Both the position numbers and the translations under genes were made by a program. Below, one piece after another: positions 301 to 9,014 of a stretch of 10,392 nt of DNA. Numbering within the stretch: position 1 is the first letter of the stretch; every line of letters begins with the position of its first letter. The notes beneath the pieces were generated by a model, which saw only the letters and a list, made by a program, of their open reading frames with translations, was not told the DNA's origin and ran no database searches. Source of the stretch: a virus. Lineage: Duplodnaviria; Heunggongvirae; Uroviricota; Caudoviricetes. Location of the stretch: positions 1 through 10,392 of IMG/VR virus record IMGVR_UViG_2534681697_000028; one strand, written 5' to 3'.

Positions 301-463
301 AGTGATGGGGGAACAATTTCTGTAATCTGCGAAGCTGGCGATCGGTCAGACTCAAATGCCTGGCAACTTCAGTCTGAGTAGCCACTGTTCACCTCGCCCA
401 AAAATCTCCCCTCATGCGTTTTAAACATGCATCTTGCGAACAACTTTATGAAACGCGGCATAT

Positions 464-560
464 ATGTCCGGTTTGAGTGTTCAATTTTTGCGCATGTCCG
501 GTTCGCAGAAAGCGCATTTCTATATTTTTCAAATGGTTAACCTTCAGAGAAACCGGACAT
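464..560 (-). promoter_or_regulatory. three copies of a 10-bp motif ATGTCCGGTT (464-473, 494-503 direct; 551-560 inverted) upstream of the gene starting at 385; candidate operator array
   Basis: Exact 10-mer repeated three times in about 100 bp between the capsid-operon terminator and the next gene start. The third copy sits inside the hairpin gaaacc-ggacat-ggtttc (548-565). An 8-bp palindrome ggttaacc lies at 535-542. Confidence 0.45.
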
Positions 561-641
561 GGTTTCCGAAAAATTTTCATAAATAGTGAAATTCTGCGCC
601 GCTCCCGCCCCGTGGCAGGCCACCCCACCGGAAGGACCCGC

Positions 642-665
642 AAAAAAAGCCGGATTTCTCCGGCC
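642..665 (-). terminator. rho-independent terminator of the capsid operon
   Basis: Stem gccgga/tccggc (649-654 / 659-664) with loop tttc, preceded on the plus strand by A7 (642-648), which is a U-run on the minus transcript. It lies directly after the stop of the 137-aa gene at 671. Confidence 0.7.
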
Positions 666-670
666 TTTTC

Positions 671-1084
671 TCAGATGGTTTTCAGTATGCGATCGATTTC
701 GCCGTCATCACCCTGATATCTGCCATCGTATGCCATGCCAGGGCTTACGGCCTGCGGGCTGTGCATGTCCATAAAGTTTTCAAAGGCTGCGGTAAGCTCC
801 GGCGCAACCTTCGGGCGTTCCTGCTCTATGGTCATGTTCAGGATTTCCCGGGCATTATCGACGCTAATACATGGCACGTTTGCCATTGCACGTAACAGCG
901 GCTGATAGTCGTCAGATTCATGAAGCGCCATAATCGCATCAGTGCGCGGCTTGTCCTGCTCTTCCAGTTTGTTAAGTTGATATATAGCCTCGTAGGTTGA
1001 TAAACCTCTGTCCGCCATTGCCCGCGCTTCGGCTTTAAATTTACTCGCTAGCGGTAGCGCCATGATAGCTTCATTGATTGCCAT
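671..1084 (-). CDS. hypothetical protein, 137 aa, last gene of capsid operon
   Basis: ORF with SD AGGGGG 4 nt upstream of ATG 1084; starts 10 nt after the stop of the upstream gene; followed by the terminator. No family recognised by eye. Confidence 0.6.
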   Translation of the reverse strand: MAINEAIMALPLASKFKAEARAMADRGLSTYEAIYQLNKLEEQDKPRTDAIMALHESDDYQPLLRAMANVPCISVDNAREILNMTIEQERPKVAPELTAAFENFMDMHSPQAVSPGMAYDGRYQGDDGEIDRILKTI

Positions 1085-1096
1085 CGTTCCCCCTGC

Positions 1097-1387
1097 TTAT
1101 CGCACCAGTGGCTGAACGGATACGCCAGAACCCGCAAAAGCGGCGCATTTTTTCGCGTCGGTGTCGACGCTCTCGGGCCAGTTAACGGCGGCGATATTAA
1201 ATATCCCCGTCTTGTAACACTGTGCTGATTTCTGCTTTGACGTGTCCACGGGGTACGCCGTCAGATAAACAGCCTTGCCAGATTCCTGACCATCCCACGC
1301 CTTAAACTCGCCATTGTCCGCCAGCATCAGCGGAAAAATGTACCAGCGTCGTGGCAACCTGCTGTGTGCCTGCATATAACTCAACAT
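1097..1387 (-). CDS. hypothetical protein (96-aa ORF); likely true start at ATG 1400 in another frame (apparent frameshift at the A5 run 1334-1338)
   Basis: ATG 1387 has no SD. ATG 1400 lies 11 nt after the capsid gene stop, has a strong SD GGGAGA, and encodes MGTPYVELYAGTQQVATTLVHF before stopping after 32 aa. Removing one base of the A5 run joins it in frame to the 96-aa ORF. Confidence 0.5.
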   Translation of the reverse strand: MLSYMQAHSRLPRRWYIFPLMLADNGEFKAWDGQESGKAVYLTAYPVDTSKQKSAQCYKTGIFNIAAVNWPESVDTDAKKCAAFAGSGVSVQPLVR

Positions 1388-1411
1388 ATGGAGTGCCCAT
1401 AGAATCTCCCG

Positions 1412-2467
1412 TTAACCAATTTTCACAGTAACAAATTTGCGGATATCTGCCGGAACCGGCTGTGGTGCGCTGTGCGTCTGCACGTACTCAATCGCCGGAT
1501 CGCCGCTCTCAATCCAGTTTTTCGGGTAGTACATGTTTTGCGTTGCGCCCGTTCTTACCGCTTCCGGATCCATAATCGCGCCATAGGCCACCAGACCTTT
1601 ATTGCTGGTGTTGCCTAGGACAAGCAAATCAGGCTCAAGGAAATATTTTTCGGTGCCGTCGCTGTCGGTGTATTTGCCGGAATAGACGATAAGGGCCAGA
1701 TCACCCAGATAGCCTTTAAAGCTCACCACTTCGCCCAGGTTTTTACACGCCAGCTCTGCGGCGGATTCTGAACCACGGGAAAGATCGTACAGCTCGCGGA
1801 ATTTTTTAAAGCTACGTAAGGTGCGCCATACGTCAGCGCCCATAATCATGACGTTGGCGGGGCAGCTGGCCTGTTCGGCGTATAGCTCGATGTCATCTGT
1901 CGGATCATGCGTCTCTTTATTCTGCTCAGACCATTTTTTTCCTGGCCCCTGATGGACAATGCAGTTTGCCGGCATATTCCAGTCGATTTCATAGCGTTCT
2001 ATGCCTTCGCCTTCAATGATGTTTTTTCCGGTCGTGACCGCATTCACTGCCAGCCATTCCACACGCGCTTTAATGGCGTTTATCTGGCGGCGCATGTTGC
2101 CAGTAATGAGGCGCATACGTCGCCAGGTGGGGTCGTTAAGCAGTGCCGGATCTTCTCCAGCCATGCGCATGATGGTTTTTGATGGATCGATTTCGTGTTT
2201 GGGTTTCATGTAGCCAGGGCGGATAGTGCTTGTTTCGTACCCTTTATCACGCTGAACCTGGCTACCCACCACAGGCGAACAAAACGCCGACATGGTGACT
2301 TCTTCAATGTCCAGGGTATCCAGCATGACATCTTGTGTGTTGAAGGTTGCTACTTTCGGGAAAAACAGCGTGGTAAACAGCGGACTGAATTTAAATTCCG
2401 GGATATCCCCGCGATTCAGGTACGCGAAAAGCTGGTTAGTGTTAAGTGCCGTTGCTTTGTCTGCCAT
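1412..2467 (-). CDS. phage major capsid protein, lambda gpE family
   Basis: 351 aa, close to lambda gpE length (~341 aa as recalled), with recognisable gpE-like blocks: KFSPLF..FF, PGYMKPKHE, DPTDDIE, FRSFKKF, RGSESAAE, YKGYLGD..IVYSGKY, VLGNTS..GL.AYG, YPKNW..GDPA.EY. Start overlaps the upstream ORF stop (TAATG). Confidence 0.9.
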   Translation of the reverse strand: MADKATALNTNQLFAYLNRGDIPEFKFSPLFTTLFFPKVATFNTQDVMLDTLDIEEVTMSAFCSPVVGSQVQRDKGYETSTIRPGYMKPKHEIDPSKTIMRMAGEDPALLNDPTWRRMRLITGNMRRQINAIKARVEWLAVNAVTTGKNIIEGEGIERYEIDWNMPANCIVHQGPGKKWSEQNKETHDPTDDIELYAEQASCPANVMIMGADVWRTLRSFKKFRELYDLSRGSESAAELACKNLGEVVSFKGYLGDLALIVYSGKYTDSDGTEKYFLEPDLLVLGNTSNKGLVAYGAIMDPEAVRTGATQNMYYPKNWIESGDPAIEYVQTHSAPQPVPADIRKFVTVKIG

Positions 2468-7668: not shown

Positions 7669-8096
7669 GTCGGCAGCCTCCTTGATTGATGGAATGTAAC
7701 CACCGCCGGAGGTCCTAAGCTCGCTGGCGGTGGACTGTACAGGGTTAGGACTACTGGCAATCAAGGGAACCAGCCTACCCGAAGGTAGCCCCATACAGCC
7801 CACCATTGTATAGGTGTGCGTGTGCGTCGATACAAAAAAAGACGTGTGCGGCGTCTGTATCGCCTCGATTGTCAGCGGGGTCCTAATCCCGGCACCCGTT
7901 TTATAAGGTGCACGCGAATCATAGCCTTGGCTGGCAGTGGCGATCAACTGGTTTTTCATACCCGCTTTATTCAGGTTGTGCGAGTCCCGCCCTTGCAGGT
8001 GTGTGGTATGATTTAACATAGCTACCTCGATACTGTTGCTATCGTTGGTGGTTAGACGCCCTGCATGTGTTGCGAGCACTGCGGGGCGTTGCTTAA

Positions 8097-8194
8097 TTTG
8101 AGTGACAAAACTCAAACTGTGCGCACAGATTAAAATCATGTGTGCGCACATGTCAATACTTAACATCTCATTTTTTTTGCTGTATTGTGTGCGC
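8097..8194 (+). promoter_or_regulatory. operator-like palindromes TGTGCGCACA upstream of the RHH gene
   Basis: 12-bp perfect palindrome ctgtgcgcacag (8117-8128), 10-bp perfect palindrome tgtgcgcaca (8141-8150), half-site tgtgcgc (8188-8194), and hairpin tttgagt-gacaaa-actcaaa (8097-8116), all within 130 bp of ATG 8225. Confidence 0.55.
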
Positions 8195-8224
8195 CCATAA
8201 AGTCCATTTAAGTGAGGTGCATCA

Positions 8225-8422
8225 ATGTCTAGCGGTAACACAAACAACAAATCAGCAAAGAAAAATATTCGATTCCCACATGAGCTTATAGATGGGGTTG
8301 ATGCCAGCGTTGAACAAGAAAAATTAACTAATCCTAGTGCTAATTTTTCCGCATGGGTCTTAGATGCCTGTGGACGCAAATTAAAATATGAACAGCGCCG
8401 GAAGGCCAAAGAATCAGAATAA
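8225..8422 (+). CDS. ribbon-helix-helix (Arc/MetJ/CopG-like) DNA-binding protein, candidate repressor
   Basis: 65-aa ORF with SD GAGG 7 nt upstream. Motif KKNIRFPHELIDGVDASVEQE...SANFSAWVLDACGRKL fits the RHH strand/helix/helix pattern. Transcribed opposite to the rest of the element. Confidence 0.7.
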   Translation: MSSGNTNNKSAKKNIRFPHELIDGVDASVEQEKLTNPSANFSAWVLDACGRKLKYEQRRKAKESE

Positions 8423-8446
8423 TCACTATCAGCGCCGTGGCGTGAG

Positions 8447-8659
8447 GTGCTACGGCGCATTGCTTTACAGGTACACACAATGACCAACAAAGAATCAACC
8501 AATACACCATCGCAAAAAACGAACAGAGAGCACGAAAATATGGCGCTCGAGCATGAATCAGAAAGATTCGCACCATGTGCTTTTGCCCTTGAGCAATTCC
8601 TAAAAGAGTACAGGGAAACGCGCTCATTGCAGGTATGGCAACGAACTGAACCAGACTGA
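8447..8659 (+). CDS. hypothetical ORF downstream of RHH gene (start uncertain; in the same frame as the RHH gene, separated by one TAA)
   Basis: Track ORF; no convincing independent SD or start codon. Reading through the TAA at 8420-8422 would give a single ~144-aa product. A plus-strand terminator follows at 8755-8781. Confidence 0.3.
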   Translation: MLRRIALQVHTMTNKESTNTPSQKTNREHENMALEHESERFAPCAFALEQFLKEYRETRSLQVWQRTEPD

Positions 8660-8754
8660 TTGCATTGCCCACCAGCCTGATAGCGTCTATCATCCCCGTG
8701 CTTATGTTTGGGATCACATACACATAAGGCGCAGCGGGTTAATTGTTCAGAAAG

Positions 8755-8781
8755 GCGGCTCCATATCGGGGCCGCTTTTTT
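8755..8781 (+). terminator. rho-independent terminator of the plus-strand RHH unit
   Basis: Stem gcggctcc / ggggccgc (8755-8762 / 8768-8775, one G-U pair), loop atatc, then T6 (8776-8781). Confidence 0.65.
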
Positions 8782-8807
8782 CGTGTTTGTCATATCTGTG
8801 ATACCCG

Positions 8808-9014
8808 TTAAGCAGCCGTTCCGCGTGCTTCCTGTTCGCGTTCTTTCTGCCAGGCCAACACATCATCCTCATACCATCCGCGACGGCGTAAACCAACGCG
8901 AAAACCCTGCGGAAATTCTCCGGCGTTGATCATGCTTTGCAGCGTGCTGTCTGCCTTGATGTGGATAATTTTTTTTACTTCCTAGCGAAAGATAATTTTT
9001 CTGATTGCTTCCAT
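8808..9014 (-). pseudogene. alpA: AlpA-family (MerR-like HTH) regulator interrupted by an in-frame TAG at codon 11
   Basis: From ATG 9014 (SD AAGGT upstream): MEAIRKIIFR-TAG-EVKKIIHIKADSTLQSMINAGEFPQGFRVGLRRRGWYEDDVLAWQKEREQEARGTAA. The part after the stop matches the AlpA pattern (HTH, G.FP, G.R...W, E.DV..W). The TAG (8982-8984) falls at the conserved R-L-x-E-V position. The next ATG (8933) has no SD and would give only 41 aa. Confidence 0.6.

Follow-up and report, generated by a model that had tools for sequence, protein, structure and literature searches.

The island EcCICFT073 is a phage-inducible chromosomal island (PICI) that carries alpA, a capsid homologue (c1499), a head-decoration homologue (c1500) and cos sites (PMC6092414). 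AlpA, induced by the helper phage, is the activator of its cycle (PMC6092414), and deletion of either int or alpA abolishes transfer (Table 1, PMC6092414). The replication origin of PICIs has been described as lying 3' of the primase gene (PMC6092414), and the layout of the Gram-negative cos-type PICIs is also described in PMC6739421. The locus considered here, referred to as the window, is a stretch of 10,392 bases (IMG/VR virus record IMGVR_UViG_2534681697_000028, positions 1 to 10,392) that is 100% identical to contig AERN01000081.1 of assembly GCA_000193915.2, which is given as Shigella boydii ATCC 9905 in a published strain table (PMC6397287). By its gene content and position, the window is read as most of an EcCICFT073-type PICI of about 12 kb, situated at tRNA-Pro between yejM and yejO. 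It is very probably a dead, immobilised copy, the genes of which have been hit stepwise by real and mechanistically varied mutations.

With EcCICFT073 and the other Escherichia coli cos-type PICIs (PMC6092414, PMC6739421), the island shares an integrase at one end, with a candidate AlpA-type activator next to it, a primase/replicase followed by an iteron origin, a gpE-like capsid gene, a gpD-like decoration gene, a lambdoid cos for packaging by the helper-phage terminase, a length of about 12 kb and a dedicated attachment (att) site, in this case tRNA-Pro. It differs from EcCICFT073 in that the window copy has broken int, alpA, head-decoration and ssb genes and an inserted insertion sequence (IS). 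The features expected of a PICI are otherwise recognisable, namely a tyrosine integrase at one end of the island with an att site at tRNA-Pro, albeit with a frameshifted gene, a primase/replicase of its own with iterons directly 3', and homologues of phage capsid and head-decoration proteins (Phage_cap_E and HDPD). The annotations of the island and of its relatives contain no gene for a terminase large subunit, a portal, a tail or lysis. The satellite phage P4 also has much in common with the locus, including a D5-type primase, a tyrosine integrase, an AlpA/Vis-like regulator, Icd-like open reading frames (ORFs) and a C4/CI-type antisense RNA immunity region. Unlike P4, the island has capsid genes of the gpE and gpD kinds, its cos is lambdoid and not P2-type, and no Pfam or PHROG match to Sid, Psu or Delta was found among the ORFs scanned, a scan that some small ORFs fell outside.

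The closest islands, each of about 12 kb and located at tRNA-Pro between yejM and yejO, are those of E. coli Nissle 1917, ATCC 25922, AST198 and others, and the chromosomal flanks of the S. boydii locus are the same as theirs. These sister islands, and that of E. coli O121 201805972, are 88-96% identical to the window across the shared segments and have the insertion site and gene order in common with it. Read along the minus strand of the window, the order runs from the integrase through a 76-residue ORF and the AlpA-like helix-turn-helix gene to a region with DUF3950 and the RNA elements, continues with small ORFs and DUF4222, the 584-residue primase, the iterons, a 92-residue gene, ssb and a 68-residue gene, and closes with the gpE-like capsid gene, the gpD-like decoration gene, a 137-residue protein resembling Nu3 and the C-terminus of gpC, the cos site and a 94-residue gene; this is the order found in the Nissle 1917 and AST198 islands. 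Every gene is intact in the Nissle copy; in AST198, int and the capsid gene each contain an amber codon. The lesions and the IS of the S. boydii island are present in none of the islands of Nissle 1917, ATCC 25922, AST198 and O121 201805972. Among 5,426 complete E. coli genomes no near-identical island was found, the top match having 93% identity across 70% of the window, and with no such copy available the sharing of lesions was checked by exact-protein look-ups. The comparison with relatives leaves eight full-length island ORFs in the window.

A first-pass annotation of the window, made from the sequence alone, had proposed that four broken genes could each be restored by a single-base change in a homopolymer, at G5 (307-311), A5 (1334-1338), C4 (3063-3066) and A3 (6545-6547), here called sites 1 to 4, and had also noted an in-frame TAG in alpA. 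All of these coordinates are borne out, the TAG lying on the minus strand as CTA at 8982-8984. A shift of frame is indeed present at sites 2, 3 and 4, and the alpA TAG is in frame, but site 1 breaks no gene. Single-base restoration fails at all four sites, which correspond in turn to a joint between unrelated units, a 32-bp deletion, a 316-bp deletion and the loss of a lone C; the addition or removal of one base at the flagged runs gives chimeric or internally deleted proteins, not ancestral ones. The suggestion of a decaying satellite stands, in that at least six inactivating lesions are seen against the intact relatives, and they are present as well in a second assembly, CP026875.1. Alignment to the same element in other genomes, which had been put forward as a check, confirms true lesions though not the homopolymer cause, and it adds two that had not been listed, the int deletion and the insertion of ISEc20.

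Site 2 lies within a pseudogene for a lambda gpD-like head-decoration protein (1097-1400, minus strand) and is a 32-bp deletion between 15-bp direct repeats, not a homopolymer change. In Nissle and AST198 the region reads GTC-CGCCAGCATCAGCGG-GGTAAATTCCTGAATAA-CGCCAGCATCAGCGG-CAAAATG, with the starts of the two 15-bp repeats 32 bp apart, whereas in the window a single repeat, CGCCAGCATCAGCGG, is left at 1319-1333 and the 32 bp that separate the two starts are gone. The decoration protein has 111 residues in the relatives, and by tblastn its residues 1-27 and 34-111 are found in different frames here, the Pfam HDPD match of the gene beginning at profile position 40.

Site 3 is a similar but larger event, a 316-bp deletion between 11-bp repeats. 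The repeat CCCGTTCTGTC occurs twice in AST198, 316 bp apart, and the window, in which one copy survives at the junction (3064-3074), follows one flank as far as the repeat and the other flank past it. The loss takes the last 20 codons of the 92-residue gene (phrog_1231), leaving its first 72 codons at 3065-3280 on the minus strand, together with the OB fold of ssb, encoded by its first 83 codons. What is left of ssb is a 3' remnant (2911-3074, minus strand) comprising the last 53 codons with the DDIPF tail and the stop; it is 95.7% identical to AST198 ssb (4643-4806) and retains only SSB residues 84-140 of a protein that, in the relative, matches Pfam SSB. The remnant and the truncated 92-residue gene are in different reading frames, and a one-base repair at the C4 run would yield a chimera and neither of the original genes.

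Site 4 is found inside a copy of ISEc20, a member of the IS110 family (5861-7313, plus strand), which is 1,453 bp long and 99.5-99.7% identical to annotated ISEc20 copies. Its transposase is a pseudogene (6092-7287, plus strand) in which a lone C has been lost at 6545/6546, so that the frame shifts after codon 151; the domains DEDD_Tnp_IS110 and Transposase_20 are both present but are split by this 1-bp deletion. All three reference ISEc20 copies and a sister copy of the island in CP119446.1, which encodes a transposase of 398 residues, read GACAAC where the window reads GAAAC, and the loss of the C created the A3 run at 6545-6547 rather than altered the length of a homopolymer. The insertion, for which CP119446.1 has the same site, is itself counted as a lesion. 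It lies 2 bp upstream of the 77-residue gene at the head of the DUF4222-primase block and separates the replication operon from the regulatory region. On the other side it cuts an Icd-like ORF, of which the first 58 codons remain (7314-7487, minus strand) out of 154 residues in E. coli EH41, and about 290 bp of EH41 at this ORF are missing from the window. Past the transposase frameshift there are three substitutions (6953, 7004 and 7078) that occur in none of the three reference copies and that all alter the amino acid (T to S, A to V and S to P); two of the three postdate the split from CP119446.1, which fits relaxed constraint.

The two genes that govern mobility are damaged by smaller changes. 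The AlpA-like activator pseudogene of 68 codons (8808-9014, minus strand), a helix-turn-helix gene in the position expected next to int, has codon 11 changed from CAG to TAG (8984-8982). This is the sole difference from the Nissle gene in 207 bp, both Nissle and AST198 have CAG, and the C-to-T change falls on the inner C of a CCAGG Dcm site. Amber hotspots in E. coli classically arise by deamination of 5-methylcytosine. The S. boydii lineage has three derived C-to-T changes, each on the inner C of a CCAGG, at 1616 (synonymous, in the capsid gene), 3000 (in the ssb remnant) and 8984 (the alpA amber); two of 14 single-nucleotide polymorphisms relative to CP119446.1 are on Dcm cytosines, which make up 0.4% of positions (P about 0.002). 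The integrase pseudogene (9490-10392, minus strand) runs about 340 bp past the window and carries a 1-bp deletion at 10384/10385 that changes TACCAGGTG to TACCGGTG. The deletion is seen by nucleotide alignment, and by tblastn integrase residues 1-116 and 117-413 are in different frames. It leaves the arm-binding domain out of frame with the central and catalytic domains of a protein that has 413 residues in the relatives, with Phage_integrase, Phage_int_M and Arm-DNA-bind_3 domains. The end of the window is itself an out-of-frame ATG, the one taken by the gene caller.

Damage to these genes recurs elsewhere in the family. Integrase codon 116, a CAG within a CCAGG Dcm site, has suffered two independent lesions, namely CAG to TAG in AST198 (integrase at 10348-11589) and the loss of the A in S. 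boydii. An A8 run in codons 13-16 of alpA (8968-8975) is A7, and hence a frameshift, in eight of 10 other assemblies sampled with the same C-terminal alpA peptide. This A8-to-A7 change represents an independent and apparently common loss of alpA in the island family, and one in which a homopolymer is truly the mutated site. The 41-residue truncated alpA product was considered as a marker for the TAG and set aside, since most of its matches carry the A8-to-A7 change instead.

Site 1 is of a different nature. It was described in the first pass as a break in a helix-turn-helix ORF, a description that gives way to a 24-codon stub of a phage terS lying beside a stand-alone gene of 93-94 residues. 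The G5 run (307-311) lies just on the island side of a joint and is not a mutation. On one side is the intact 94-residue gene (1-285, minus strand; phrog_1561, PHROG E=5e-49), which the ORF finder extends to an upstream ATG at 300, and the homologues of which, with 93-94 residues, are separately annotated genes in Nissle 1917, AST198 and E. coli O121. On the other side, phage homology ends at about 314, three bases off the G5 run. E. coli CFSAN029787 has a lambdoid prophage to which window positions 314-640 are 98.8% identical, and the counterpart there comprises the first 72 nt of a terS gene of 169 residues (Pfam Phage_Nu1) and the preceding 255 nt. The stub (314-385, minus strand; VATQTEVARHLSLTDRQLRRLQKL), which consists of the first 24 codons of a lambdoid Nu1-type terS, therefore came with the cos site, and the same joint, 'GATGGGGGAACAATTT' including the G5 run, is found in the otherwise intact E. 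coli O121 island, where NCBI annotates the stub as a partial protein, and also in CP119446.1. Unrelated units meet there, and the O121 island has the identical joint. Site 1 is an old recombination joint of a captured helper-phage cos and terS stub that breaks no gene, and the cassette is a variant within the island family rather than a product of decay.

The order of events can be followed with the sister copy in CP119446.1, which has the 32-bp deletion and the ISEc20 insertion, while the 316 bp and a complete 398-residue transposase are still there. The 32-bp deletion and the insertion thus came first. Because CP119446.1 shares the IS yet retains the 316 bp and the unbroken transposase, the 316-bp deletion and the transposase frameshift arose later and in place, in the lineage of ATCC 9905. 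Both deletions may be attributed to replication slippage or illegitimate recombination at short direct repeats, and the alpA amber to 5-methylcytosine deamination at the Dcm site; two single-base deletions outside homopolymers broke int and the ISEc20 transposase, and the ISEc20 insertion cut the replication operon off from the regulatory region. That the relatives gained the 32-bp and 316-bp segments instead of their being lost here is unlikely, because these segments encode conserved parts of HDPD and SSB. As the integrase, the AlpA activator, SSB and the head-decoration protein are all lost, the island is predicted to be no longer inducible, excisable or able to spread, and the remaining intact ORFs have probably just not been hit yet. 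The sister copy is more decayed still and has damage of its own. An IS3-family element has entered its primase (with a 3-bp duplication at window 3911-3913), elements of the IS66 and IS4 families lie beside ssb (window 2856-2864) and near yejO respectively, ssb has an amber, and 29 bp with one cosB repeat are deleted.

Whether such lesions are genuine has to be weighed against the possibility, also raised in the first pass, that homopolymer length errors of an indel-prone assembly broke the frames. Errors of this kind do exist in public Shigella assemblies. Across the full 21.7-kb locus all seven indels between CP026875.1 and the draft are one-base shortenings in CP026875.1 of runs of at least five bases, and by this homopolymer pattern CP026875.1 is an indel-prone assembly that was built separately; its short runs probably reflect homopolymer errors of long reads that were left uncorrected. 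As a consequence, the yejO autotransporter is split in the gene calls of this assembly (684 and 172 residues against 836) and the 68-residue gene is altered. Within the window CP026875.1 differs at four positions only, 2656 (T6 in the window, T5 in CP026875.1), 5946 (G6, G5), 7437 (G5, G4) and 8602 (A, T), none of which is at a flagged site, and all of the window lesions are also in CP026875.1. None of the seven shortenings falls on a flagged site and none of the flagged lesions is a change in homopolymer length; of the three runs in the window that differ from CP026875.1, the relatives back the window at two, the window version at 2656 and 5946 agreeing with intact ORFs, the reference ISEc20 copies and CP119446.1. 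The same lesions also recur in independent short-read assemblies. The int deletion and the alpA TAG are found together in nine contigs, which represent two NCBI assemblies and seven Logan assemblies of separate sequencing runs, the 32-bp deletion recurs in CP119446.1 and four Logan contigs, and the 316-bp deletion, absent from CP119446.1, recurs in GCA_003572355.1. The earlier remark that a nonsense substitution is less typical of sequencing error was right. The TAG is present in nine contigs from nine data sets. Assembly error is rejected because no lesion is a homopolymer length change and the lesions recur in independent assemblies, leaving it only a very slight probability, and the broken genes are taken to be real mutations. 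Still less probable is that the ribosome reads through the shifted frames, so that the genes would be split yet functional. Programmed frameshifting is known in the transposases of IS1 and IS3 and in phage tail genes, and the frames here do meet at A-rich or C-rich runs. Against this, ISEc20 and its relatives encode the transposase as a single ORF of 398 residues, the head-decoration protein, SSB, integrase and AlpA are single ORFs in intact relatives, the 32-bp and 316-bp deletions take out segments of conserved domains, and a TAG cannot be bypassed by a frameshift.

A more biological alternative is that the island has been domesticated, having been grounded by the loss of int and alpA while the capsid gene, the Nu3-like gene, the 94-residue gene, cos and the primase were kept by selection, for instance for phage interference. 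Eight ORFs are indeed full length, and mobility genes have been damaged repeatedly and independently, by the alpA A8-to-A7 change in eight of 10 other assemblies sampled and by the AST198 integrase amber at codon 116. A selective reason may also be imagined, in that uncontrolled replication of EcCICFT073 harms the host (PMC6092414). Structural and replication genes are ruined too, however, as seen in the decoration gene, ssb and the operon cut off by the IS, and the sister copy CP119446.1 has an IS in the primase, an ssb amber and a cosB deletion; moreover, the samples look clonal, so that conservation of the intact ORFs carries no weight. Domestication is consequently considered improbable, and the word 'domesticated' in the first-pass annotation is unsupported, the sister copy having further IS insertions, one of them in the primase. 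A related proposal is that the repeated knock-outs of mobility genes (the alpA Dcm amber, the A8-to-A7 alpA frameshift and the two codon-116 integrase lesions of S. boydii and AST198) reflect not neutral decay but selection to ground the island, which might, for instance, avoid harmful runaway replication while preserving cos- or capsid-based interference with helper phages. This is a speculative reading, to which only a small probability is attached, if marginally more than to domestication itself.

Several points weigh against regarding the island as dead through genuine mutation. Support for the lesions comes from assembled sequences, and the independence of CP026875.1 from the draft is inferred only from the homopolymer differences. 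The transposase frameshift is found only in the window draft and CP026875.1 and is thus backed by two assemblies alone, as short-read assemblies cannot resolve IS copies. The 68-residue alpA-like protein matches Pfam Phage_AlpA over profile positions 4-51 of 51 with 17.6 bits (E=0.0035), short of the curated cutoff of 21. Taken alone, the eight full-length ORFs would also fit retention by selection.

A minus-strand module at 671-2673 contains the 68-residue gene, the gpE-like capsid gene, the gpD-like decoration gene and the 137-residue protein. The major capsid protein of the lambda gpE family (1412-2467, minus strand) is intact at 351 residues, matches Pfam Phage_cap_E with E=1.5e-48 and aligns to its Nissle counterpart over 351 of 351 residues. 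The 137-residue protein (671-1084, minus strand), which resembles the Nu3 scaffold, the C-terminal part of lambda gpC, is likewise intact. It matches phrog_1999 (E=2e-59) and positions 474-566 of the 583-position profile of phrog_53, a head maturation protease, and is 89% identical to the Nissle homologue over 137 of 137 residues; a Nu3-like scaffold of its own may therefore be encoded by the island. A perfect 32-nt palindrome, AATTATAACTGGATGTACATCCAGTTATAATT, lies at 2701-2732, upstream of the capsid module, and four Logan short-read contigs stop exactly at this palindrome, and at 602 inside cos.

The replication block consists of an intact primase/replicase of 584 residues with D5_N and DUF5906 domains (3569-5323, minus strand), and 3' of it is a dense iteron cluster (3324-3558) of TGTCTACC / GGTAGACA, in which the repeat families D1-D4 occur in both orientations, including inverted pairs. 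This cluster is the probable replication origin. CP119446.1 lacks one 9-bp iteron unit (3538-3546). Between the ISEc20 insertion and alpA lies an RNA-based immunity region of the P1/P4 type (7400-7911, minus strand), where three Rfam elements score above their gathering thresholds: the c4-a1b1 target (7400-7449, 48.5 bits), the C4 antisense RNA (7723-7810, 78.6 bits) and isrK (7835-7911, 56.6 bits). A CI/C4-type antisense-RNA immunity region, as in P4, is thus present. A draft gene call of a 437-residue ORF at 7480-8793 was rejected as probably spurious, as it overlaps the three Rfam RNAs and an opposite-strand DUF3950 gene. The bounds of the island are placed only approximately, at about window -1246 to 10962. 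Arm-type repeats, TTTTAGTTATACGTTT, of 16-26 bp occur near both ends, and when an exact att core repeat was sought at the 3' end of tRNA-Pro, only a 10-bp match was found.

The cos site itself (386-640, minus strand) was delineated by aligning it with the cos junction of phage lambda and with the sequence that precedes terS in the prophage. It has a cosN-like sequence, GGGCGGGAGCGG, at about 610-599 (the lambda counterpart being GGGCGGCGACCT), a cosQ-like sequence at about 625-640 and three ATGTCCGGTT repeats, at 464-474, 493-503 and, inverted, 551-561, which lie where lambda has the cosB R sites; from this position and the repeat pattern, they are inferred to be cosB R sites. EcCICFT073 has an island-specific cosB and the protein Rpp, whereas the window island instead carries a helper-type cos with phage cosB repeats and the terS stub, and has neither an rpp nor a terS gene. 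An island-specific cosB with Rpp was not found here, and neither the 94-residue nor the 137-residue protein was accepted as an Rpp homologue, as neither has a sequence match in the PDB; an Rpp was found in the AST198 relative only. The slot between the 94-residue and Nu3-like genes is occupied in the window (314-640) and in E. coli O121 by the helper-type cos and the 24-codon terS stub, in Nissle 1917 by a terS of 180 residues (1347-1889 of the locus) and in AST198 by an RppC homologue (1499-1933 of the locus; PDB 6HLK, E=4.5e-31).

Shigella genomes decay by the accumulation of pseudogenes and the expansion of IS elements. What is observed at this locus is of the same kind as Shigella genome reduction, with multiple independent inactivations and IS insertions in horizontally acquired DNA. 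The locus is a defective member of a known PICI family, in which ordinary Shigella gene decay and IS activity have acted on a phage satellite. The appropriate annotation is that of a defective PICI with pseudogenes, the frames of which should not be 'corrected'. It also serves as a caution that a frame near a homopolymer that seems restorable by one base may hide a repeat-mediated deletion of 32 bp or 316 bp, or no broken gene at all. The sister strains provide a small dated series of decay steps. For those who study satellites, it is of modest interest that the island family swaps three packaging solutions, namely a terS, an Rpp or a copy of the helper cos.

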